The position numbers and the translations under genes are program-made. Below, piece by piece: positions 1 through 9,852 of a stretch of DNA of 10,059 nt. This stretch comes from a virus (taxonomy: Duplodnaviria > Heunggongvirae > Uroviricota > Caudoviricetes). The stretch lies in IMG/VR virus record IMGVR_UViG_2713896898_000004, positions 1 through 10,059 of that record. One strand, written 5' to 3'. Positions within the stretch are counted from its first letter, which is position 1. Every line of letters begins with the position of its first letter. The notes under the pieces were generated by a model that was not told where the DNA came from, did not search any database, and saw only the letters and a list, made by a program, of their open reading frames with translations.

Positions 1-543
1 CGCGTCAATGTAATCCAGCACAGCGTTAAGTCTGGTTGTTTCTGCCTGTGTCAGTTTACGTCCGGCCTGCAATTTCAGTTGAATCAGACTGATGGAAGCC
101 ATTGCAGTATCAATCAGCGACTGGCGCTGTGCTTCTGCTGCATCTACTGCGGCGCTGCGCTGTGCCCCGGTATCCGTCACCCATTTCTCACCATCCCATT
201 TATCGTATGACGTTAACGGAGCGAGAGTGGTTGTATTTTCAGGATAATCTCCCGGTACTGTAATTTCTTTTGCTTCTCCTGTTTCAGTGTTATAGACCGT
301 TTCACCGCGATGGTCTGGCACATACTCCCATGAGTTTAAATCTGCTGAACGGCAGATAGCATAACCAGCTTTATGTGTGCCAGGTGCATCTAAACAGGAA
401 TACGCCGGAATACCAACACCTACAGCAAGAAATTCGGTTGATGCAGAAATATATTCCCTTGTCTCACTGTTATAGTTGTAAACGATAATGTTTCCTTCCT
501 GTACGGCAATAAGCTCATTGTTTAATATCGCGTTATTCATCAT
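1..543 (-). CDS. Tail fiber assembly protein (Tfa-type chaperone); 5' portion only, the 3' end lies beyond the window start
   Basis: Minus-strand frame starts ATGATGAAT at 543-535; its ATG (543-541) overlaps the TGA stop (542-540) of the upstream cassette (ATGA coupling). Hand translation: MMNNAILNNELIAVQEGNIIVYNYNSETREYISASTEFLAVGVGIPAYSCLDAPGTHKAGYAICRSADLNSWEYVPDHRGETVYNTETGEAKEITVPGDYPENTTTLAPLTSYDKWDGEKWVTDT..., open to position 1. The HRGxTVY and KWDGxxWV pattern is typical of phage Tfa chaperones. Absent from the ORF track because there is no stop inside the window. Confidence 0.75.
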   Translation of the reverse strand, partial: MMNNAILNNELIAVQEGNIIVYNYNSETREYISASTEFLAVGVGIPAYSCLDAPGTHKAGYAICRSADLNSWEYVPDHRGETVYNTETGEAKEITVPGDYPENTTTLAPLTSYDKWDGEKWVTDTGAQRSAAVDAAEAQRQSLIDTAMASISLIQLKLQAGRKLTQAETTRLNAVLDYIDA

Positions 544-1067
544 GCAGCTCTCACAATATAGTTAAATGCAATATTTCGCGGGCGTGTTTCACTACCGCCG
601 GGAATCTTAAAGGCATTAAATACTCCGCCGCCCGACTGACTTATTCCATCTGTATACAGCCCGCCTCCTGCACTGTCGCTGATTGCAAATGTTTTTGATG
701 GTGAACTGTTTGAGGCCGGTCCCCAGTATTTCAATTCGAGCTTTCTAACCTCATCTCTCTGAATACTCAATAAAGCACGTCCGGCATCAATAGCACGCCC
801 ATCATCCCAGCCACGAATAAATTCACCGCGTAAATCAGGCAGTTTTCCTGACGGGTACGCTGTGGCTAGTTTGGGATACTTCAGCTTATCAAAGGCAGCA
901 CCATTGCATTTTAGCCAGCCCTCTGGAGGTGTGGCTGAAGGCCACGGAACTGTTACACCAACAGGCAACGCAGAACCTTCCCCCAAACCAACGTTTTTAA
1001 CTTCGAAAACAGAGCTATCTAATAGCATTTTTACTAACAGAAACAGGATGCTTTTTATGCAAATTGG
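540..1067 (-). CDS. Tail fiber C-terminal variable (receptor-binding) cassette, Mu Sv'-like; probably silent in this orientation
   Basis: Track ORF 540-1028 (162 aa) has tail-fiber/tail-collar-like motifs (WLKCNGAAF...YPKL...LPDLRGEFIRGWD). The frame stays open 13 codons upstream of the first ATG to a stop at 1068-1070, with no convincing RBS. Followed by the Tfa gene with ATGA overlap and head-to-head with the invertase, as in Mu G-segment/gin and P1 C-segment/cin. Confidence 0.6.
   Translation of the reverse strand, partial: PICIKSILFLLVKMLLDSSVFEVKNVGLGEGSALPVGVTVPWPSATPPEGWLKCNGAAFDKLKYPKLATAYPSGKLPDLRGEFIRGWDDGRAIDAGRALLSIQRDEVRKLELKYWGPASNSSPSKTFAISDSAGGGLYTDGISQSGGGVFNAFKIPGGSETRPRNIAFNYIVRAA
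978..1003. other. Candidate gix/hix-like 26-bp invertase crossover site (12 + AA core + 12)
   Basis: TTCCCCCAAACC-AA-CGTTTTTAACTT. Left half matches the gix left half TTCCTGTAAACC at 9/12 (recalled consensus); right half matches hix GGTTTTTGATAA at 7/12; central AA dinucleotide. Lies inside codons 9-17 (EVKNVGLGE) of the tail-fiber cassette, about 55 bp from the invertase start. Confidence 0.35.
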
Positions 1068-1656
1068 CTATATTCGCGTATCAACAAATGACCAGAACAC
1101 GGATTTGCAACGCAATGCGCTCAATAGCGCAGGATGTGAACTGATTTTTGAAGATAAAATCAGCGGAACAAAATCAGCCAGACCGGGATTGAAAAAACTG
1201 CTCAGAACGTTATCAGCGGGGGATACGCTCGTTGTCTGGAAACTGGACAGGCTGGGCAGAAGCATGAAACACCTGATCACACTGATTGAGGAATTGCGGA
1301 AAAAAGGTGTCAATTTTCGTAGTCTGACGGATTCAATTGATACCAGCACCCCAATGGGACGATTTTTCTTCCACGTGATGGGCGCCCTGGCTGAAATGGA
1401 ACGTGAATTAATTGTAGAGCGTACACTGGCCGGACTGGCAGCAGCCCGCGCACAGGGGCGAATTGGTGGGCGTCGCCCGAAACTGACAAAAGAGCAACAT
1501 GAGCAAATAGCGAGGCTGATTAAAAACGGCCACGACAGAAAACAGCTGGCCATAATTTACGACATCGGTATATCGACGATTTATCGTTATCACCCTGTAG
1601 GTGACACGCAACCCGGAGGAATAATTGAGAATACTCAGGAAACAAAAAACCGCTAA
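1057..1656 (+). CDS. Serine DNA invertase, Hin/Gin/Cin/Pin family
   Basis: MQIGYIRVSTNDQNTDLQRNAL...DTLVVWKLDRLGRSMKHL...SLTDSIDTSTPMGRFFFHVMGALAEMERELIVERTLAGLAAARAQGRIGGR... is near-identical in motif content to Gin/Hin (catalytic Ser in YIRVST, C-terminal HTH). Start chosen at ATG 1057 (AGGA 9 nt upstream) rather than the track's 862, which overlaps the tail-fiber cassette. The stop TAA 1654-1656 lies in a terminator stem. Confidence 0.93.
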   Translation: MQIGYIRVSTNDQNTDLQRNALNSAGCELIFEDKISGTKSARPGLKKLLRTLSAGDTLVVWKLDRLGRSMKHLITLIEELRKKGVNFRSLTDSIDTSTPMGRFFFHVMGALAEMERELIVERTLAGLAAARAQGRIGGRRPKLTKEQHEQIARLIKNGHDRKQLAIIYDIGISTIYRYHPVGDTQPGGIIENTQETKNR

Positions 1657-1677
1657 TCTGAACATTAGCGGTTTTTA
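1645..1677. terminator. Bidirectional intrinsic terminator between the convergent invertase and U genes
   Basis: Perfect 13-bp stem AAAAACCGCTAAT / ATTAGCGGTTTTT with a 6-nt loop (CTGAAC); A-run on one side, T-run on the other; sits between stops at 1656 (+) and 1685 (-). Confidence 0.65.
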
Positions 1678-1684
1678 CGTTAAA

Positions 1685-2173
1685 TCAGAACACCCCTTTA
1701 ACTGAGCTGACCACATTGTTAAGGGATGATGTCACCTTATCTTTAAGACCGGACAGCATATCACTGAACGATGAGGATTGCAGGCGCTCCCGCAAATCCT
1801 CATCACAGCGTTCAAGGGTCAGGGAAAACTCTATCTTTTTCGCTTTCCCGTAGCGATCCAGTTCAGAGCGGGTCGTGCTCGTTTCAGTCAGAACATACAT
1901 GCCGTAAATCTGCCCGACGCCATCAATCAGAGGCCACGGGCGTCCCGCATACGCCTGCGTGGTCAGCAGCGACAGCGACACTTCGCCGCCTGTAATCTCA
2001 GGATAAAGCACGCCAGAAAGAACGATGCGATCATCACCTGCACCGATATACTGCCAGCTTGCTGAACGGTTAACGCGCTCGTTTTTCACATGTCGCCAGC
2101 TTTTGTTTTGCTGTAACTGCTGATGCGGCAATGTGCGCAATTCAAAAACAAACATGCCGTAGATCATCATCAT
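1685..2173 (-). CDS. U: P2-like tail protein gpU
   Basis: 162-aa ORF directly downstream of the tape measure gene; AAGGAG RBS overlaps the T stop. MMMIYGMFVFELRTLP...GVLYPEITGG...GRPWPLIDGVGQIYGMYVL resembles P2 gpU. Gene order T-U matches P2. Confidence 0.85.
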   Translation of the reverse strand: MMMIYGMFVFELRTLPHQQLQQNKSWRHVKNERVNRSASWQYIGAGDDRIVLSGVLYPEITGGEVSLSLLTTQAYAGRPWPLIDGVGQIYGMYVLTETSTTRSELDRYGKAKKIEFSLTLERCDEDLRERLQSSSFSDMLSGLKDKVTSSLNNVVSSVKGVF

Positions 2174-2184
2174 GGCACGACTCC

Positions 2185-5022
2185 TTACTCTTTATCATAA
2201 AAGCTTCCACGCCCGGCACGGGTACGCCGCTCCAGTTCTGCCCTGACCATTTCGCCGACCAGTTTCGCCAGTTCGCGGGGATTCTGCGTAACAACGTTAT
2301 GCAGATGGACATGAATTTCACCACCAAATCCGGGGGTCGCAGCCTCCCGGCTGCGGGAAGATGCGGAAACGGGCGCAACTGGCGCACGTGCGGCCTCCAC
2401 GACCGGACGGGAGCTTGCTGCAACAACAGGGGGCAGCGCCGGAGATAACGGAGCCGGGGGCGCGGGAGTGATATTGATTGCAGGAAGAGCCTTGTTGCTC
2501 TGCGCAACCTTTCGCTCCTGCCACTCCCCACGAACAGCAAGCGCACGGGGCAGGTTCTTAAAGACAATATCACCGGGGCCGATACGCTTTTTCGTCTCAT
2601 CAACCAGCCTGCCTGTGTTATCTGCAATTTTGCTGAGCCTGCGCAGCGTGCCAGTGTTGTTGTCCGTGAGCGGCTTGTTGTCTTTAGGCTTATCGCCTCC
2701 GGTCCCTGTTTCCGCAGATTTCGGCGGATTGATTTTTGCCAGGTCCCCCTGAAGTAAAGCAACCTTGTCCTGAAGAATGGCCGCACGCTGCGCGTCTTCG
2801 ATTTTCTTTCTCGCCCTTTCCGCTTCATCTGGAAGGACGCCAAGTTTTTCCAGTATCCATGCCAGCGTATCCAGCAGCATTTTTGCAGGCGTCAGGACAA
2901 GCTGTAACGCACCGCCAAGAACGTTGCCGAACACCTCGCCAGCACTGGTGCATTTATCCAGCGTTTCCTTGCTGGATTCCATCGGTGACAGCAGCGATGT
3001 AAACCAGTTAAAGACCTGAATCACGCCATCACGAACCAGTTCGAAAACAGGGCCAAACCGTTCAAAGGTTTCGCGTAACGGGGCCAGCCGCTCCATAATC
3101 CCGCTGAACACCCCGGCAAAAAATGCCCTGATTGGGTCCCAGTATTTCCAGATGAGAACGGCAGCTCCGGCAAGCGCAGCTACGATAAGACCGACCGGGC
3201 TGAACAACGCCCCGATAGCGCCTCCCAGTAAAGAGACGGAACCCGCCACCATTCCCCACAGCGCTGGCAGGACCCTGACAGCATTCATTGATCCGGTCAG
3301 GAGGGAAAAACCAAGACGCAGTTTTGCCAGCGGGCCAGCAAGCACCCCAAGAGCCAGTGACAACGAGCCAACCGTTGCAGTCATTGCCAGCAGCGCACCG
3401 CCTGCAATCAGTAGCTGGCGCGTCAGTGCCGGATGGGCCTGCGCCAGCTCCGTCACCTTTGAGACCACCCGAGTGAGCCACTGCGTGACAGAGCGCAGCG
3501 GACCGTCAATCAGATCCGCAATGCGGATACGCAGCCCCTCCCATGCACTGCCGAGTGATTTCAGGTCGCCATCAAGGTTATTGGCCATAACCTTTGCCGT
3601 GCGTTCAGCCTCACCGCGTGCGCCTTCAAGTTCTTTTCTCAGTTTGGGCAGAGAACCGTCACCTGCCGCATCAACGAGAGCCATAAATGACGTGAAGGCC
3701 TCTTCTCCGGCTATGTCCTTAAAGAACGATACCCGGTCAACTTCCCCGTATTTGCGGGTGGCTTTATAAAGGTCGGCCAGCACATCCTCCATCGGGCGCA
3801 TTTTGCCGTTCGCATCAGAGACAGCCACACCAAGCTCTTTCAGCGCCTCAGCTGCCGCCTTTGGCGGTGATGCCAGACGAGCAAGGCTGGCACGCATTGC
3901 CGTCCCGGCATCACTCCCTCTGATACCCATATTCGCCAGCACGCCCGCCATCGCTGCGGCCTGCTCCAGCGATATTCCCAGCTTACCCGCCACCGGACCT
4001 GCATATTTCATGGTTTCGCCCAGCGCGCGAAGGTCGGTGTTAGTACGGGTAAACGCCGCAGTAAGTGTGTCGCCGACCCGGTCCATCTGGTCAGCAGAGA
4101 GGCCGAACTGCGTCAGGATATTTGAGCCAATATCCGCCGTCTCGCCAAGGTCCATACCGCCAGCCGTTGCCATGCTCAGCACGCCGGGAAGCGCAGCCTG
4201 AATGGCTTCTGGTGTGAAGCCAGCCATAGCAAGAAATGCCTGCCCACTGGCGGCATCACTCGCAGTAAACTGCGTTTCAGAGCCGAGCTTTAGCGCCTGC
4301 TCACGCAGCGCCTTAAACTGCGGGCTGTTCTGGTCAATTCGCGTCAGCGCCTGCACACGGGACATCTCTTTCCCGAATCCGATAGCGGGCTGCAAAAAAC
4401 GCCCGGCAGCATAGCCGCCAGCCGCTGCCGCACCAGTTGCCAGCGCACCACCCGTTTTCAGTTTTCCCGCTGTTTCCTGCGCGCGTGAATACTGCTCACG
4501 CGCCCGCGTTACACGCGCAAGCGCCTGTCGTTCGCGTTCAAGCTGGTTGTTGTACTGTTCGGTGCGTCTGATGGCCTGCTGGATGGTGTTATCGCTGCCT
4601 GTCAGGGAAATACCGTGGCGTTTAAGCTCTCCGCCAAGCTCCCGCATTTTCTGAATTTCCCGTGTGCGCGATTCATTCAGGCGTTCAAGCCGGGTGCTTA
4701 ACTGCTGCATCAGCTTTTGTTGTTTTTCGCTGAGCACCGTACCCGTGCGTTGTAACTGATGAAGGGCGTTAAGCTGGCGTCGTGCTTTCACGATGCCAGC
4801 ATCCGCTTTACTGACAGCATCGCGGGCGCGCTCAAATGAACGCGCCTGACGCTCGAGATTTTTGATCGCCCCCTGCGTTCGCTGGATGGAGTCACCAAGC
4901 TGTCCCATCAGGCGGCGGGCGTTTTCGGCTGGCCGGGTCAGCCTGTCAACAGCACTGAAGGCGACCCGAATGTCAAGAGTCTTCATCGTCTGCATTCCCA
5001 CTGCGAAGTGCCGCCCGCTCAC
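2185..5022 (-). CDS. T: Tail tape measure protein (gpT-like)
   Basis: 945-aa ORF with a coiled-coil-rich N-terminal region (repeated Q/R/E/L-rich heptads), a central hydrophobic Gly/Ala-rich segment and an Ala/Pro-rich C-terminus; sits between E/E' and U as in P2. The true start may be an internal Met (MQTMKTL...), since E' overlaps the 5' end. Confidence 0.9.
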   Translation of the reverse strand: MSGRHFAVGMQTMKTLDIRVAFSAVDRLTRPAENARRLMGQLGDSIQRTQGAIKNLERQARSFERARDAVSKADAGIVKARRQLNALHQLQRTGTVLSEKQQKLMQQLSTRLERLNESRTREIQKMRELGGELKRHGISLTGSDNTIQQAIRRTEQYNNQLERERQALARVTRAREQYSRAQETAGKLKTGGALATGAAAAGGYAAGRFLQPAIGFGKEMSRVQALTRIDQNSPQFKALREQALKLGSETQFTASDAASGQAFLAMAGFTPEAIQAALPGVLSMATAGGMDLGETADIGSNILTQFGLSADQMDRVGDTLTAAFTRTNTDLRALGETMKYAGPVAGKLGISLEQAAAMAGVLANMGIRGSDAGTAMRASLARLASPPKAAAEALKELGVAVSDANGKMRPMEDVLADLYKATRKYGEVDRVSFFKDIAGEEAFTSFMALVDAAGDGSLPKLRKELEGARGEAERTAKVMANNLDGDLKSLGSAWEGLRIRIADLIDGPLRSVTQWLTRVVSKVTELAQAHPALTRQLLIAGGALLAMTATVGSLSLALGVLAGPLAKLRLGFSLLTGSMNAVRVLPALWGMVAGSVSLLGGAIGALFSPVGLIVAALAGAAVLIWKYWDPIRAFFAGVFSGIMERLAPLRETFERFGPVFELVRDGVIQVFNWFTSLLSPMESSKETLDKCTSAGEVFGNVLGGALQLVLTPAKMLLDTLAWILEKLGVLPDEAERARKKIEDAQRAAILQDKVALLQGDLAKINPPKSAETGTGGDKPKDNKPLTDNNTGTLRRLSKIADNTGRLVDETKKRIGPGDIVFKNLPRALAVRGEWQERKVAQSNKALPAINITPAPPAPLSPALPPVVAASSRPVVEAARAPVAPVSASSRSREAATPGFGGEIHVHLHNVVTQNPRELAKLVGEMVRAELERRTRAGRGSFYDKE

Positions 5023-5191
5023 GCCAGCTAACCACTTCGCCGGGCGTCATCATGAAGATTTCGGCGGGCGACCAGTTAAAAATAACGGCAATATCTGCCA
5101 CAAAGTCTTCTATGTGCTCAAAGCACACAACCGTGATCAGGCTTCCGTCGCCTGTTCGTTCTTCCCGCCAGAGTCCGCACCGCTCAAAAAA
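4973..5191 (-). CDS. E': E' extension, expressed as an E+E' fusion by -1 programmed ribosomal frameshift
   Basis: The -1 frame relative to E is open from the slippery site to a stop at 4973-4975 and overlaps the 5' end of T, exactly as for P2 E+E'. The track's 78-aa ORF 4973-5209 covers this frame. Confidence 0.65.
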   Translation of the reverse strand, partial: FFERCGLWREERTGDGSLITVVCFEHIEDFVADIAVIFNWSPAEIFMMTPGEVVSWRERAALRSGNADDEDS

Positions 5192-5505
5192 TTTACGGCA
5201 ACCACACATAACTGAATAAAGTCACGGGATGCCATTTTTTTGATCGTCACTTCATCCAGTCGCGGTGATGTCACGCGTGACAACAGCGTAAACATGGATT
5301 CCGCTTTCAGATTCAGCACATCAGACAGCGACAGACCACGCAGGGATCCAGCCTGCTCAATAGCCCCGGTAATCTCCACATACGTGATTTTTTCGTCGCC
5401 TCGCTCAATTGGCTGGGTAAGTTTTACGCCGCGCTCGCCGGTTTCTTTCGCAGTATCAGCAACCACCACAGCGTTTTCAGTATTGGTATTTTTCGTCTCT
5501 TTCAT
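5137..5505 (-). CDS. E: Tail assembly chaperone gpE (frame-0 product)
   Basis: 122-aa ORF; AAGGAG 7 nt upstream of ATG 5505; position between FII and T as in P2; contains the T6G slippery site near its 3' end. Confidence 0.8.
   Translation of the reverse strand: MKETKNTNTENAVVVADTAKETGERGVKLTQPIERGDEKITYVEITGAIEQAGSLRGLSLSDVLNLKAESMFTLLSRVTSPRLDEVTIKKMASRDFIQLCVVAVNFLSGADSGGKNEQATEA
5185..5191 (-). other. Slippery heptamer T TTT TTG (T6G) for the E to E+E' -1 frameshift
   Basis: Minus strand reads GTA AAT TTT TTG AGC in the E frame; a -1 slip gives AAA TTT TTT GAG CGG..., continuing into the E' frame. T6G is the slip-site type described for the P2 FETUD operon. Confidence 0.6.
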
Positions 5506-5524
5506 CAGAAAACTCCTTTCAGTC

Positions 5525-5546
5525 AGAGGCGACGCACTGCGCCGCC
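5525..5546 (-). other. Stem-loop between FII and E (possible partial terminator / mRNA processing or stability element)
   Basis: Inverted repeat AGGCGACGCA / TGCGCCGCCT (9 of 10, with a G-U possible in RNA) in the 54-bp FII-E gap; no U-run follows, so not a canonical intrinsic terminator. Confidence 0.3.
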
Positions 5547-5559
5547 TGCATATTACTTA

Positions 5560-6072
5560 TCAGCCGAGCCCGAGCGCGGAGCGGATGCGGTCGGGTACAA
5601 TGTCCTTGCCATCCTTCCGGTAGATGTGGTTCACCAGGTCAATTTCCCACACCGGACGATCGTTAATACTCAGCTTGTAGTAGGTGTTTTTGACAGCGTA
5701 AGTGTGTGACGTGGCTTCGCCCTGTTTGGCCTCCCCCATATCAATTTCCGTCACACGCCCGCGCATCTCGATTTCATACAGGTCGCTTTCTGCATCGGTG
5801 TAGTATTCACCCGCAAAACGCAGCAGCGTGCCGTCCATTGTTCCGCCATATTTAAGGAACAGCGCACGAACGGCGCCACCCATGACAAAACTCGCATCAA
5901 GCGCGGAATCGTCCAGGCCGAGGTCGATACTCACCGCCCCCATCATGCCACCACCACGATAGCTGTCGGTTTTACGCGTCAGTTTAGGCGGGGTGACAGA
6001 CGTCACCTTACCCACTTCATTTTCACCATCCACAAACAGCGTAAAAAAACGAAGATGTTTTGGTACGGCCAT
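5560..6072 (-). CDS. FII: Major tail tube protein (gpFII-like)
   Basis: 170-aa ORF; the start ATG overlaps the FI stop (TAATG); size and position match P2 FII. Confidence 0.9.
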   Translation of the reverse strand: MAVPKHLRFFTLFVDGENEVGKVTSVTPPKLTRKTDSYRGGGMMGAVSIDLGLDDSALDASFVMGGAVRALFLKYGGTMDGTLLRFAGEYYTDAESDLYEIEMRGRVTEIDMGEAKQGEATSHTYAVKNTYYKLSINDRPVWEIDLVNHIYRKDGKDIVPDRIRSALGLG

Positions 6073-7256
6073 TAAGCACCTCCAAGCACTGCAAATGCAG
6101 GACCAAAGAACTCATCAGTGAACGCCTGGTAAAGCTCCATATCTTCCAGCGGAGGAACGGGCGTATATTTATAGCGAATACGCACGCGCCCCTGTCGTAA
6201 TTCTGTGGTGCTGTTATCCACGATGTCATACCAGCACGATGCGCCAATCAGTTTCCCGGCAGTAACCAGCGAATCCAGTTTTGCCCTGATGGCACTGATG
6301 ACGTCCTTCACGTTCGCGGGCGTTAGTGGACTGTCGATGGTTTCAAACTGCGCTTCCGCAATTGAATCAGCCAGCACCTGTGCGGTTCGGGTATACACCT
6401 CAAAGATGTAGGCGTTCGTTTCCGGTGTGCGGTTGCCCCAGAAGCGGAACCCGTTGCGGCGAATGATGGTTGTGATTTCTTTGTTGTTGAGGCTGTTGGC
6501 ATCGCTGTCATCAGCCTGCAACGACCAGAACACATGCCTGGACATCCCCAGCACATTTTTAACCGGAACGTTGGACAGCGATTTGTGCCAGCCCTGTTCA
6601 TGGTCAATGTACGCACGAAGGCCGCACGCATAGGCTGGCGCGGGGAAAACCTCATTCTCGCCACTTTTCGGGTTGTAAGCGATGAAGTCCGGCCACAGGA
6701 GCATCAGCTCGCGTTCGTTGAATTTTTCACGGTATGCAATGGCTTCAGCCATCGTGTTACAGCCATGACAGGAGGCATACACAAACGCGCGCAGTTTACC
6801 TGCAATCACGCACAGGGATTTTGTCACCGCCTCCGTGTCCAGCCCCGGCGCGGCCAGAATACGCGGACGGTATCCGATGCTTTCATCCTGCTCTGCAACA
6901 AGCAGCGCATACATCCCCGTATAGCTGCCGTCGGATTCAGAACCACCGATAACCAGTTGATCCTGTGTTTTTCCGTCTTCTTCTTTGTGTTCAGCCACGC
7001 GAACGACGATCACCTTTGTGCTCACCTGGTCTGCAATGGGTTTCAGCGCACGGTACAGCGTCCCCGTTGTCCCGCATTTTCCCAGCACGTCATTGACGCG
7101 GGTCACTAATGCAGGCTTGTTCAGCGGGAACAGCTTCGCGTCCGCATCGTCCGCCGTTGCCACGATACCGATAACGCTGGAATCAACGTCGTTAATTGCT
7201 GTTACCAGGTCGGTACTTTCCGTAACGCGGGCGCCATGAAAGCGAGTTTCACTCAT
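6072..7256 (-). CDS. FI: Contractile tail sheath protein (gpFI-like)
   Basis: 394-aa ORF, first gene of the minus-strand block; size and order (FI-FII-E-T-U) match the P2 tail operon. Confidence 0.9.
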   Translation of the reverse strand: MSETRFHGARVTESTDLVTAINDVDSSVIGIVATADDADAKLFPLNKPALVTRVNDVLGKCGTTGTLYRALKPIADQVSTKVIVVRVAEHKEEDGKTQDQLVIGGSESDGSYTGMYALLVAEQDESIGYRPRILAAPGLDTEAVTKSLCVIAGKLRAFVYASCHGCNTMAEAIAYREKFNERELMLLWPDFIAYNPKSGENEVFPAPAYACGLRAYIDHEQGWHKSLSNVPVKNVLGMSRHVFWSLQADDSDANSLNNKEITTIIRRNGFRFWGNRTPETNAYIFEVYTRTAQVLADSIAEAQFETIDSPLTPANVKDVISAIRAKLDSLVTAGKLIGASCWYDIVDNSTTELRQGRVRIRYKYTPVPPLEDMELYQAFTDEFFGPAFAVLGGA

Positions 7257-7413
7257 AGTTCCAGCCCCTTGTATCCGTTAAATGATTCGGCAACAATCAT
7301 CACCCACCACGCGCGTAATCTCATCCCTGCGCCGTTCTTGCCGCCCGGCGACAACAAAAAGCAGTAACCCCGCCCGCACACACATGCGACCATGCTGCAC
7401 AGGGAGGGAGCCG
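7257..7413. promoter_or_regulatory. Divergent FI / D intergenic region; candidate late-promoter region with an imperfect TGT-N12-ACA-like dyad at 7338-7355
   Basis: 157-bp gap between the divergently oriented FI and D starts; TGC-CGCCCGGCGACA-ACA resembles the dyad element of P2 late promoters (recalled consensus TGT-N12-ACA); strong SD GGGAGGGAG before the D ATG. Confidence 0.3.
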
Positions 7414-8523
7414 ATGATTGACACCACCATGCAACTGTTCAACCAGAGTACTGACCCCGTGAAGATGCCTGATTTTGATATTCTCGCGGAGGGGAAAACG
7501 CTGTCCGGTGTGACAGAACGCCTGATGAGCCTGTCACTGACCGACAACCGGGGATTTGAAGCAGACCAGCTAACCATCACGCTGGATGATGCTGATGGTC
7601 AGTTGCAGTTGCCGCCACGGGGCGCTCGCCTGACGGTTCTCATTGGCTGGAAAGGCGAACCGCTGACAGAAAAAGGCACTTACATTGTTGATGAAATTGC
7701 TCATGAAGGACCGCCCGACAGACTGACCATTTCAGCCAGAAGCGCAGATTTTCGGGATGAATTTAACGTCAAGCGCGAAGTATCCTGGCATGATGTGACC
7801 GTTGAACGCGTGGTGTCTGCAATTGCTCACCGATACGGCCTGAAACCGCAAATCAGCGAAATGCTGATGGATATTGAAATCGACCACGCTGACCAGACCG
7901 AAGAAAGCGACATGTCCTTCCTTACACGCATGGCGGAAATGCTGGGCGCAATCACCACGGTAAAAAGCGGTAATCTGTTATTCATCATGCCAGGTGGTGG
8001 CGTGAACGCGCAGGGAAAACCATTACCATCGTTTGCCATCACACGCAGCAGCGGCGATCGCCATCAGTTTCGCATTGCTGACCGCGAGGCGTATACGGGG
8101 GTACGCGCTTACTGGCTTGATCTTAATTACGGGAAAAAGAAAAAAGTCAGCGTGAAACGCCGCAAACCGCCAAAACCCAAAAAGGAGAAAAGCAGCAGCC
8201 GTGAAGGTGACTATATGGAAGGTGCGGAAGGCAACGTGTTTGTGTTACGCAAGACTTATCAGAACGAGCAGGCAGCAAGACGCGCAGCGGCGGCAAAGTG
8301 GCAGCAGCTACAACGCGGAGCCGCATCATTCTCCATCACGCTGGCGCGTGGACGCGCAGAACTCTACCCCGAAATGCATGGCACGGTAACAGGATTTAAA
8401 AGCGAGATTGATAATCAGGACTGGATTATTGCAAAAGCCGAGCACTCCATTGATAACAGCGGCTTTACCACGCAGCTTGAGCTTGAGGCAAAAATCCAGG
8501 AATGGATAGCAGAAACAGAGTGA
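7414..8523 (+). CDS. D: P2-like tail protein / late control gene D product (gpD)
   Basis: Start set at ATG 7414 (MIDTTMQLFNQ..., GGGAGGGAG SD) rather than the track's 7282. The 369-aa product is gpD-like in length and sequence character and is followed by ogr as in P2. Confidence 0.85.
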   Translation: MIDTTMQLFNQSTDPVKMPDFDILAEGKTLSGVTERLMSLSLTDNRGFEADQLTITLDDADGQLQLPPRGARLTVLIGWKGEPLTEKGTYIVDEIAHEGPPDRLTISARSADFRDEFNVKREVSWHDVTVERVVSAIAHRYGLKPQISEMLMDIEIDHADQTEESDMSFLTRMAEMLGAITTVKSGNLLFIMPGGGVNAQGKPLPSFAITRSSGDRHQFRIADREAYTGVRAYWLDLNYGKKKKVSVKRRKPPKPKKEKSSSREGDYMEGAEGNVFVLRKTYQNEQAARRAAAAKWQQLQRGAASFSITLARGRAELYPEMHGTVTGFKSEIDNQDWIIAKAEHSIDNSGFTTQLELEAKIQEWIAETE

Positions 8524-8565
8524 GCAACTTAGAATAGCGGCAGCACCACGTTAAGGGAGGTCGCT

Positions 8566-8826
8566 ATGTTCCGTTGTCCGCTTTGTGGCGCATCTGCCCG
8601 AATCCGCACCAGTCGTTCGGAAAATGATTCAGATACCGTACGGAAAAAATATTACCAGTGTAACAACCTGGAATGCGGCGTATGCTTCTCAACACTGGAG
8701 GCTTTCCATAAATTCACATCGAAACACGCCCCCGGCGTTCACTCTTCAGAGGGCATCCCGTGGAATGAGCTACCAGCTTCGCACAGGGGAAACAACCAGA
8801 TGAGTTTGCCATTACCTCAGAATTAA
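8566..8826 (+). CDS. ogr: Ogr/Delta-family zinc-finger late transcription activator
   Basis: MFRCPLCGASARIRTSR...YYQCNNLECGVCF: Cys4 pattern CPLC...CxxxxC typical of P2 Ogr; AAGGGAGG SD 5 nt upstream of the ATG; located directly after D. Confidence 0.85.
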   Translation: MFRCPLCGASARIRTSRSENDSDTVRKKYYQCNNLECGVCFSTLEAFHKFTSKHAPGVHSSEGIPWNELPASHRGNNQMSLPLPQN

Positions 8827-8835
8827 CAGGCTGAA

Positions 8836-8864
8836 TTGCCGGAGTAACAAAAAAGCGATAGATT
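8836..8864 (+). promoter_or_regulatory. Sigma-70-like promoter for the hok-family mRNA (TTGCCG-17 bp-TAGATT)
   Basis: -35 TTGCCG (8836-8841), 17-bp spacer, -10 TAGATT (8859-8864); predicted start near 8871, giving a roughly 400-nt transcript to the terminator at 9277, as expected for hok mRNAs. Confidence 0.45.
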
Positions 8865-8886
8865 ACGCGCGGGTGCCTTTCGGCTG

Positions 8887-9099
8887 ATGGCTGGAGGGAA
8901 TACCCGAAGGCCGGATGTGGAAAGGCCCCGGAAAACATCTCTGTTTAACCGAGGCCCTGACCATCTAACCTTAGCAAGTGATAGGTTAGCGCCTCCCCAA
9001 AAAAGGAGCAAGCGCTATGTCGCAAAAATCGCTTATGGCCATCACGTTCTGCGTGACGGTAATCCTCATCATCTGGATGCTGCACGGTTCGCTGTGTGA
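8887..9099 (+). CDS. mok-like overlapping reading frame (translational coupling frame for hok)
   Basis: 70-aa ORF in a different frame that starts upstream of and overlaps the first 83 nt of the hok-like ORF, the arrangement known for mok/hok. Confidence 0.4.
   Translation: MAGGNTRRPDVERPRKTSLFNRGPDHLTLASDRLAPPQKRSKRYVAKIAYGHHVLRDGNPHHLDAARFAV
8890..8990 (-). ncRNA. Predicted Sok-like antisense RNA (position approximate, promoter not resolved)
   Basis: By analogy with hok/sok loci an antisense RNA complementary to the mok translation-initiation region is expected; the hok leader contains a hairpin CTAACCT...AGGTTAG (8966-8989). No clear minus-strand promoter could be fixed by eye. Confidence 0.2.
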
Positions 9100-9157
9100 A
9101 ATACGGATGAGCTTCTGGGGAGCGGAGTTTGCGGCGTTCTTACAGTGTAAGCAGTAA
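9017..9157 (+). CDS. Hok/Gef-family type I toxin (small membrane peptide)
   Basis: 46-aa ORF, too short for the ORF track: MSQKSLMAITFCVTVILIIWMLHGSLCEIRMSFWGAEFAAFLQCKQ. It has an N-terminal transmembrane helix, the SLCE(I/L)R motif and a C-terminal E-x-AAF-L-x-CK, matching Hok-family peptides (closest in pattern to HokA as recalled). AAAAGGAG SD 8 nt upstream of the ATG. Confidence 0.8.
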   Translation: MSQKSLMAITFCVTVILIIWMLHGSLCEIRMSFWGAEFAAFLQCKQ

Positions 9158-9242
9158 GGAAACCGCGACGGGGGAGCAATCCCCCGTCAATCGGTTGCTA
9201 AGGCTGGCCGAAGTGGCACCCTATCCCATGGACACAAACAAG

Positions 9243-9277
9243 AAAACCCGCAGCGTAAAAACTGCGGGTTTTCTTTT
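9243..9277. terminator. Rho-independent terminator (bidirectional-capable) ending the hok-family transcript
   Basis: Stem CCCGCAG / CTGCGGG (9247-9253 / 9262-9268) with loop CGTAAAAA, followed by TTTTCTTTT and preceded by AGAAAA. Confidence 0.75.
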
Positions 9278-9348: not shown

Positions 9349-9630
9349 TTACTCAGCATTCTCCTGCTTCCATTGCCGGATCATTTCATCCGTAACATCA
9401 CTCTCATAACATACCACGTCATACCCTCCAGTACGGCTATATGCACTGCGTCTACCACATCTACTACCATTCCTTGCATGATTATAAGGACACGCACAAT
9501 TGCCTGGATACGATTCAATGGATTCTTTAATTATTTCTTTCTTGATCTGAGCATCAGACTTTCCTGTTGCTGCATACCCACTAAAAGATACCAAACAAAA
9601 ACAGATTGCCATTAATAAACCACATCGCAT
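9349..9630 (-). CDS. Small secreted cysteine-containing protein of unknown function (AT-rich cargo gene)
   Basis: Track ORF 9349-9744. The internal Met at 9630 starts a classic Sec signal peptide (MRCGLLMAICFCLVSFSGYA|ATGK); the mature part of about 73 aa has 4 Cys (GNCACPY...SRCGRRSAY...VVCYESDV). GC content is visibly far lower than the flanking phage genes. Confidence 0.5.
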   Translation of the reverse strand: MRCGLLMAICFCLVSFSGYAATGKSDAQIKKEIIKESIESYPGNCACPYNHARNGSRCGRRSAYSRTGGYDVVCYESDVTDEMIRQWKQENAE

Positions 9631-9852
9631 ACCGATACACTCTATTACTAACCAATCATAACCCACATCATAAAATCGAGATGTGGAGTACAACACCTTT
9701 AACAAGAAGGTGTCATAACGATAATATGCCGTGCAATTCATCAAAAAAAAGATCTATATCAAAGAGATAGAGCTCTTATCAGTGCTGCAGACATCGGCAT
9801 TCGAGGCAGCAGAAAAACAGTAAATCTGACGAATTTGCCTTTTCTCAGGATG

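Follow-up and report, generated by a model that had tools for sequence, protein, structure and literature searches.

Several phages and prophages carry a switch in which a DNA invertase exchanges one tail-fibre tip for another and so changes the host range. In the G segment of phage Mu, which is served by Gin, and also in the C segment of P1, which is served by Cin, the crossover takes place inside coding sequence and the invertase gene lies just outside the segment. In Mu the constant N-terminal part of S is encoded outside the segment, and the segment itself holds two convergent sets of a variable S part and U. The P segment of e14 in E. coli K-12 (stfP/tfaP, tfaE/stfE, pinE) has a silent Collar-type stfE that is located with tfaE head-to-head with pinE. 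For the module of a P88-type prophage of EPEC E2348/69, whole-genome sequencing and PCR have demonstrated inversion (Goldberg et al. 2014; PMC4272514 Table S1). Recombination in this invertase subfamily involves an enhancer that is bound by Fis and lies within the 5' portion of the invertase gene, some 100 bp away from a recombination site (PMC3798978).

The DNA analysed here, referred to as the window, is an entire draft contig of 10,059 bp from Escherichia (GCA_001514625.1, BBVH01). We read it, with a probability of about 0.9, as the right arm of a P88-like Escherichia prophage (Xuanwuvirus, Peduoviridae) that carries the invertase-proximal half of an invertible tail-fibre segment of the Mu-G/e14-P type. 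The invertible system of the window is already known and the module is an ordinary representative of its kind. P88 itself (Xuanwuvirus P88, Peduoviridae) aligns in one piece to window positions 1063-9277 with 91% identity, and the window keeps its unusual gene order, with the invertase gene facing an oppositely oriented U-T-E-FII-FI block that is followed by D and ogr on the strand of the invertase gene (P2-type tail; Pfam calls). All genes of the tail block are intact. As the orientation of the block from the sheath gene to gpU is discordant with P2, a large inversion of this block was considered and dropped, since P88-like phages are normally ordered in this way. The invertase and gpU genes converge, and between them a terminator scan found a hairpin with a 13-bp stem (1645-1676) that overlaps the stop codon of the invertase gene and is flanked by an A-run and a T-run on both strands; it is likely to be a bidirectional terminator. 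Rfam and tRNA scans across the window gave no matches.

Despite this shared backbone P88 differs from the window in its Mu-like gix sites, the Gin-like N-terminal half of its invertase, and its cassettes, indicating that the invertible module is exchangeable between similar prophages. The EPEC prophage (NC_011601.1, 1.8917-1.8937 Mb) has the same prophage type and gene order as the window, aligns to positions 780-7282 with 89.8% identity, encodes an invertase that is 94% identical, and shares the first 20 bases of the invertase-proximal site, i.e. the inner half-site, the core and the beginning of the outer half. This equivalent site contains the published EPEC inversion boundary at 1893703 (PMC4272514). 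The EPEC module has three sites, three cassettes and four isomers, whereas the lineage of the window has two sites (as seen in its relative L012) and combines a gp53-like cassette with a mosaic Collar cassette. The e14 segment has the same layout as the window, its PinE and TfaE being 82% and 84% identical to the corresponding proteins and its invertase-proximal site matching in 21 of 26 bases, but e14 is a defective lambdoid element with a decayed fibre body, and the C-terminal part of its cassette is only 53% identical. Mu has different gix half-sites (TTCCTGTAAACC...), a segment of 3 kb instead of ~1.9 kb, other cassette domains and membership in another phage family.

The invertase gene (1057-1656, + strand) encodes a protein of 199 amino acids with an N-terminal resolvase domain (Pfam Resolvase, 2.3e-51) and a C-terminal HTH_7 domain (1.5e-12), placing it in the Gin/Pin/Cin/Hin subfamily of serine DNA invertases, for which we required Ser9/10 in an RVST motif and a total length of ~185-200 amino acids. 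The context of the catalytic, nucleophilic Ser9, RVSTNDQ, is conserved, residues 1-181 align to Gin with MQIGYIRVSTNDQ being kept, and the protein matches the Mu Gin structures 4m6f/3uj3 (E 1e-88) as well as the DNA-binding domain of Hin (1hcr, 5.5e-11). It is 75% identical to Mu Gin and 100% identical to the invertases of the relatives L003 and L012, and the index of the collection lists the same protein in 988 blocks. The original prediction of a Hin/Gin-family invertase located head-to-head with a tail-fibre cassette was thus borne out, the cassette lying at 540-1028 on the - strand.

Directly upstream of the invertase gene, the spacer read from the sequence at 1004-1056 (+ strand) contains AGGA at 1045-1048, the likely ribosome binding site. 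A strict promoter scan returned nothing in this spacer; a weak promoter that overlaps the outer half-site of the recombination site is possible. Within the 5' part of the gene, two 15-mers of the form G-N13-C (1078-1092 and 1127-1141) delimit a candidate Fis-dependent recombinational enhancer at 1078-1141. They may be equivalent to the Fis sites of hin. A consensus scan found their positions kept in gin, P88 and L001, a result confounded by the conserved codons with which the 15-mers overlap, and the conservation of synonymous sites there is only modestly raised. The switch of the window is presumably Fis-dependent.

The recombination site itself was located at 978-1003 and consists of two imperfect inverted 12-bp half-sites, the inner one being TTCCCCCAAACC and the outer one CGTTTTTAACTT, that flank the 2-bp core AA (990-991). 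It lies upstream of the invertase gene and stops 53 nt short of its ATG, and this distance amounts to 53-54 nt in the window, e14 (54 nt) and Mu alike. When both strands were searched with the relaxed consensus TTCYCCCAAACCAASGTTT, allowing up to 3 mismatches, 978-1003 was the sole match in 10 kb with 0.01 expected. The 26-bp site that had been proposed here as gix/hix-like therefore stands as a unique site; it resembles the sites of both e14 and Mu, with the correction that it is nearer to the pix site of e14 than to gix of Mu. It is identical to site 3 of L003 and L009 and, as predicted, covers codons 9-17 of the cassette ORF. This position was expected to be the junction of constant and variable fibre parts, and indeed L012 has the same sequence in frame within its fibre gene H, where ...LAYLGLGE is continued by GSALPVG... 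across the junction. The site search on both strands detected no inverted partner of 978-1003 anywhere in the 10-kb window. The partner cannot be read in this assembly as the window is the entire contig and ends inside a Tfa gene; L012 and all intact relatives have a second inverted site with a matching TT/AA core. The partner expected in the H gene is of the type inverted TTCTCGCATACC-TT-GGTTTGGGRGAA.

The cassette ORF (162 amino acids; Pfam Collar, 9.3e-15) is composed of a fixed flank, which provides codons 1-12 (1028-993), and an invertible part that is limited to the stretch between the site core (990/991) and 540. Above the ATG (1028-1026) the frame of the ORF remains open for exactly 13 codons until a TAG at 1070-1068 is reached, in agreement with the original prediction, which had also described the cassette as lacking both promoter and ribosome binding site. 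This holds true, too: the sequence upstream of the ATG, ttagtaaaaATG, contains no Shine-Dalgarno motif, and a sigma-70 scan of 400-1800 on both strands gave 0 promoter-like sites with 2.2 expected. The cassette is followed, as anticipated, by its own Tfa chaperone gene, Tfa1 (1-543, - strand; Pfam Caudo_TAP, 5.5e-22), most of which is situated outside the interval 540-1656 considered earlier. The start of Tfa1 overlaps the cassette stop (ATGATG/TGA), and its end is cut by the contig boundary with ~20 C-terminal residues missing; Tfa1 is 97.8% identical to Tfa1 of L003, which like e14 TfaE has 200 amino acids. According to the Pfam calls this is the one cassette and Tfa set in the window. An exact 100-mer search of IMG/VR yielded two contigs that have sequence in common with the window in the Tfa gene only.

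In the orientation captured by the contig the Collar-type cassette and its Tfa gene (1-990, - strand) would be cut off from the promoter and the N-terminal body of H, and would for this reason be silent. One might argue instead that the 162-residue ORF is not silent and, starting at the ATG at 1028, yields a separate collar-domain protein, e.g. by read-through from the convergent tail operon, as the ORF begins with ATG and is located on the strand of the late operon from sheath to gpU, from which it is separated only by the hairpin terminator and by the invertase gene in antisense. However, we regard this as barely conceivable given the missing Shine-Dalgarno motif and promoter-like sites. Moreover, codons 1-12 belong to the flank and the outer half-site and differ between relatives (L001, L022), and the product would be devoid of the N-terminal body (Phage_tail_fib domain) that is present in the fused forms.

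Evidence for a silent half of an invertible segment comes from natural relatives of the window. In P88, L001, L003 and L009-L018 the constant part of H is followed by a site, a cassette with its Tfa gene, a second Tfa gene and cassette in convergent orientation, a further site, and the invertase gene, which is the arrangement predicted when the partner site and the expressed cassette were placed to the left of the window. Among them L012, from the sister assembly GCA_001514645.1, is a contig with 99.93% identity to window positions 977-7656. Window positions 1-994 are present there on the other strand and joined in frame to H to give a protein of 499 amino acids, so that the cassette of the window is the one fused to H in L012 with a difference of 1 nt (window position 793). 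Inverting L012 in silico between its two site cores, which are 1,863 bp apart, resulted in a single 7,656-bp alignment to window positions 1-7656 with 21 mismatches (99.73%) and no gaps; only 5 mismatches occur over 176-7656, and the mismatches cluster at 8-175. The flip also converted the hybrid invertase-proximal site of L012 into that of 978-1003 with 26 of 26 bases, confirming that L012 is the opposite isomer and that inversion at this site, as had been proposed, restores colinearity. L003 had been considered as a clean inversion isomer as well and was rejected because the cassette of the window proved to be a mosaic when compared with it; L012 was used instead. The reciprocal left junction predicted from the flip exists in nature, in contig L023, which matches flipped L012 with 100.000% identity over 4,845 bp and stops 99 bp before the start of the window.

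The second set, a gp53-like cassette with Tfa2, was found outside the window, in the relatives L012, L021 and L023. The predicted fusion of the constant part of H to the gp53-like domain (473 amino acids) was present in >150 E. coli contigs, and isomers with this fusion were traced to DRR621057, GCA_958327015.1, SRR29490113 and GCA_029601845.1 (via P0001, P0002 and P0003). In each of the 12 loci scanned the inner half-site variant (TTCCCCC or TTCTCCC) goes with its own cassette and the outer half-sites remain with H or with the invertase gene.

The difference in orientation could in principle result from homologous recombination between inverted repeats, or from misassembly, rather than from the invertase. 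Relatives with three sites do contain a 236-nt inverted repeat of 85% identity between their Collar cassettes, the mosaic structure of the window cassette points to one or more homologous exchanges in its past, draft contigs from short reads can be chimeric, and the mismatches cluster at 8-175. Yet we consider these explanations highly improbable. At the junctions the window and L012 share only about 18 bp of inverted identity (977-994), making efficient RecA-dependent recombination unlikely, and the distinguishing bases confine the crossover to the 11-bp interval 982-992, which includes the canonical AA core. In addition, L023 is an independent contig with the reciprocal junction, and in EPEC the orthologous module flips reproducibly at these same positions (PMC4272514). 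What is observed in the window and its relatives comprises the identities of the genes, the site with its geometry, and near-identical prophages that differ in precisely this inversion; the natural isomers together with the EPEC experiment on an orthologue with 94% identity indirectly suggest that the invertase catalyses the inversion.

The invertase is probably active in the strain of the window. The opposite case, i.e. that the partner site or H has been lost or has decayed in this strain so that switching has ended, is unlikely. It would be compatible with the unobserved partner on a contig that ends inside Tfa, and H is pseudogenised or fragmented in L001, L017 and L018, suggesting that some copies of the module are relics. 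In contrast, the window has an intact invertase of the widely listed sequence given above, a site that is intact and the same as in three-site relatives, and a wholly intact tail gene block, and the sister module is complete with as few as the 5 mismatches mentioned.

In the proposed mechanism of the functional switch, invertase dimers would bind the two inverted 26-bp sites, 978-1003 and the one inside H off the contig, and strand exchange at the 2-bp core would flip a segment of ~1.86 kb that holds two convergent sets, each with a C-terminal receptor-binding cassette and a Tfa chaperone gene. In the captured orientation H is predicted to be joined to the other cassette, which encodes the gp53-like C-terminal domain, giving the 473-residue fibre, and inversion would yield the 499-residue H-Collar fibre instead. 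The receptor specificity of the phage would consequently alternate, and inversion may change its host range, as known for the family.

The Collar cassette is chimeric, with its 5' 240 nt derived from paralogue C and its 3' part together with Tfa derived from paralogue A. It may have arisen by homologous recombination between cassettes that the invertase had set in direct orientation. The two-site switch might be a collapsed three-site "shufflon" in which such recombination both deletes sites and generates new receptor-binding chimeras, an idea to which we give somewhat less than an even chance. If true, programmed inversion would also drive the diversification of tail fibres and go beyond two-state switching.

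Beyond annotation the finding matters little: the contig can be annotated as the arm of a P88-like prophage that carries the tail genes and the invertase, and this explains the short "phage tail protein" that gene callers place beside a "recombinase". For genome comparisons it is a warning that, where near-identical strains differ in this segment of ~1.9 kb, the cause is programmed inversion and the difference carries no phylogenetic signal. Which tail fibre is expressed, and therefore which host range is predicted for the induced phage, is set by the orientation of the segment, and this may differ between cultures and assemblies.

The plus-strand gene at 1057-1656 encodes an invertase, and its assignment to the Hin/Gin family in the original prediction was borne out by Pfam Resolvase (2.3e-51) and HTH_7 (1.5e-12) domains and by residues 1-181, which align with sequences from crystal structures of Mu Gin (E 1e-88) and retain the catalytic serine motif. 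Identity is 75% with Gin and 82% with PinE of e14, a cryptic prophage of E. coli K-12. The crossover site predicted at 978-1003, TTCCCCCAAACC-AA-CGTTTTTAACTT, is the one place in the window that fits a relaxed consensus of invertase sites (0.01 expected). Its position stands, but the designation as gix-like has to be modified: by its sequence the site is better called pix-like, since 21 of its 26 bases agree with TTCTCCCAAACCAACGTTTATGAAAA, the e14 site proximal to the invertase, and since it has a similar spacing to the invertase start (53 nt in the window, 54 nt in e14 and Mu). The invertase and gpU genes converge on a hairpin (1645-1676; 13-bp stem flanked by A and T runs) that overlaps the invertase stop codon and probably terminates transcription in both directions. 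Transcripts reading through it from the late tail operon would be antisense to the invertase gene and would carry the silent cassette in the sense direction.

The opposite isomer is present in a locus of the sister assembly GCA_001514645.1 (BBVI01000008.1; L012). Window 977-7656 aligns with L012 on the plus strand (99.93%) and window 1-994 on the minus strand (98.2%), the two alignments overlapping only in 977-994, inside the predicted site, and in L012 the cassette continues the reading frame of H, the tail-fibre gene with the constant N-terminal body, resulting in a 499-aa fibre. The two L012 sites are TTCTCGCATACC-TT-GGTTTGGGGGAA (4061-4086) and TTCTCCCAAACC-AA-CGTTTTTAACTT (5922-5947). When the segment between the two cores of L012 was inverted in silico, the result aligned to window 1-7656 in a single ungapped piece (99.73%, 21 mismatches) and its invertase-proximal site was exactly the window 26-mer; judging from the bases in which the parental sites differ, the crossover lies within window 982-992, the interval with the AA core. 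Of the 21 mismatches, 16 are concentrated in 8-175, the 3' part of the Tfa (tail-fibre assembly chaperone) gene beside the contig end, and could stem from assembly noise or from gene conversion with a further prophage copy of Tfa; the remaining five fall in 176-7656. It is exactly this inversion that distinguishes near-identical prophages. General recombination as the origin of the orientation difference is poorly supported, a RecA-type event being unlikely because the shared inverted sequence is just 18 bp.

An assembly artefact behind the orientation difference is poorly supported as well. In flipped L012 H is joined in frame to the other cassette, with its gp53-like C-terminal domain, to form a protein of 473 aa, and proteins 95-100% identical to this predicted fusion occur in more than 150 E. 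coli contigs. One contig from the Logan assembly of DRR621057 (L023), whose end falls 99 bp short of the window start, is 100.000% identical to flipped L012 over 4,845 bp, fusion junction included, demonstrating that the reciprocal junction exists in nature in a sequence-identical background. This agrees with the prediction that the partner site and the expressed cassette lie left of the window.

The minus-strand cassette (540-1028; 162 aa, phage tail Collar domain) had been described as open just 13 codons above its first ATG and as lacking a promoter and a ribosome-binding site. Reading of the sequence confirmed exactly 13 open codons above the ATG at 1028 and no Shine-Dalgarno sequence ahead of it, and a promoter scan of 400-1800 on either strand found none; that the 162-aa ORF is expressed independently is poorly supported. 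The gene following the cassette is, as claimed, its own chaperone gene (Caudo_TAP; 1-543, minus strand), the protein being cut ~20 residues early by the contig end. This break lies just short of the conserved overlap of two convergent Tfa genes. Comparison with three-site relatives (window 540-1040 against 8055-8509 and 9883-10413 of L003, the closest complete-genome relative) revealed a mosaic, in which 1040 to ~800 matches cassette C and the invertase flank at 100%, the 5' 240 nt being the cassette C part, and ~790 to 1 matches cassette A and Tfa1 at 99-100%. Further, the alignments of L012 with the three-site locus L013 overlap by 236 nt, as they should if Collar paralogues in direct orientation had undergone a deletion between them. 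Mosaic and overlap together suggest that the two-site module is a collapsed three-site module, generated by deletion between paralogous cassettes.

The complete modules of L001 (a related prophage), phage P88 and L003 match the predicted layout exactly: constant H, a site, a cassette with its Tfa facing a convergent Tfa' with its cassette', a second site, and the invertase. Isomers of one module family comprise two-site loci (L010, L011, L012, L015) and three-site loci with either Collar cassette A (L009, also L003) or Collar cassette C (L013, L014, L016) expressed. In a half-site scan of twelve loci (L009-L019 and L021) the outer half-sites were fixed in 12/12, TTCTCGCATACC next to H and CGTTT... 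next to the invertase, and in all of them the inner variants TTCCCCC or TTCTCCC moved with their cassettes, which is the footprint that would be expected from strand exchange at the central dinucleotide. An exact-sequence lookup of the invertase protein gave ten distinct places, all belonging to this family of isomers, and in two of them (L017, L018) H is decayed. With H decayed in some relatives, the window might conceivably hold a frozen relic that lacks its partner; however, its invertase, site and tail genes are all intact, and the module of the sister strain is complete. The identities of genes and sites and their geometry are established.

The window spans all of contig BBVH01000060.1 from the draft assembly GCA_001514625.1, both ends (1 and 10,059) being assembly breaks, and its gene content is that of the right arm of a P2-related prophage. 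Within 1685-8826 the sheath-tube-E-T-U block (gpU, tape measure, gpE/E', tube and sheath, 1685-7256, all minus strand) lies opposite to gpD (7414-8523) and ogr (8566-8826), both on the plus strand, unlike in P2. A rearrangement suspected from this inverted block was rejected, as P88-like phages (Xuanwuvirus, Peduoviridae) normally have this order, in which sheath and gpD diverge from a control region at ~7257-7413. Window 1063-9277 aligns with P88 in one piece (91%), and a place covering at least 80% of the window is present in 775 of the 5,426 complete genomes of E. coli. L003 carries an extra 1-kb hypothetical gene (18017-19039) between gpD and ogr, which the window lacks (gpD end 8523, ogr start 8566); the interval looks like a cargo (moron) insertion hotspot. 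Downstream of ogr a plus-strand hok/gef-like ORF (9017-9157, 46 aa) has a weak Pfam HOK_GEF match, and scanning the whole window gave no Rfam family, e.g. Sok, at threshold. A minus-strand hypothetical ORF (9349-9744; called as 93 aa at 9349-9630) without Pfam match has a hydrophobic N-terminus and several cysteines and is conserved at the same place in L001, whose tRNA-Leu/Cys/Gly cluster starts ~110 bp past the equivalent of the window right end.

Searching the 5' part of the invertase gene for Fis sites, we identified two candidate G-N13-C 15-mers (1078-1092 and 1127-1141), 49 bp apart, the first centred ~95 bp from the site core, at what we take to be the positions of the hin Fis sites. 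Both are kept in gin, P88 and L001, but they overlap strongly conserved codons, and synonymous-site conservation is only modestly raised there. In Hin and Gin systems, invertase dimers at two inverted 26-bp sites and a Fis-bound enhancer form an invertasome, in which cleavage at the 2-bp core is followed by strand exchange through subunit rotation (PMC3798978).

The original interpretation was correct, and the window system is a textbook one, of which a direct orthologue has been experimentally shown to invert. Whole-genome sequencing detected inversion in P2-like prophages of EPEC E2348/69 (Goldberg et al. 2014, PMC4272514), among them a three-repeat locus (inversions at 1891695-1893703 and 1892127-1893703) with four isomers whose coexistence was confirmed by PCR; inversion of the e14 segment was also shown (PMC4272514). 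In a domain-wide survey of programmed inversions tail-fibre inversions were a major class (PMC9881135). The three-repeat EPEC locus (L022), a P88-type prophage, shows 89.8% identity in its alignment with window 780-7282, the two invertases are 94% identical, and the invertase-proximal site of the locus, TTCCCCCAAACCAACGTTTTCGTTTT, within which the published right boundary of both inversions lies, has its first 20 bases in common with the window site.

The H-gp53/Tfa2/Tfa1'/Collar'/invertase module also occurs in two prophages of classical P2 gene order (L021, 2675-6246; L019, 8001-10460), where the sheath gene comes after the invertase on the same strand, which indicates exchange of the invertible module between Peduoviridae lineages. 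With the segment oriented as in the window, the Collar cassette and its Tfa would be silent, and the H-gp53-like fibre would be expressed with Tfa2. Inversion would swap the two cassette/Tfa sets, so that the receptor specificity of the released phage would alternate.
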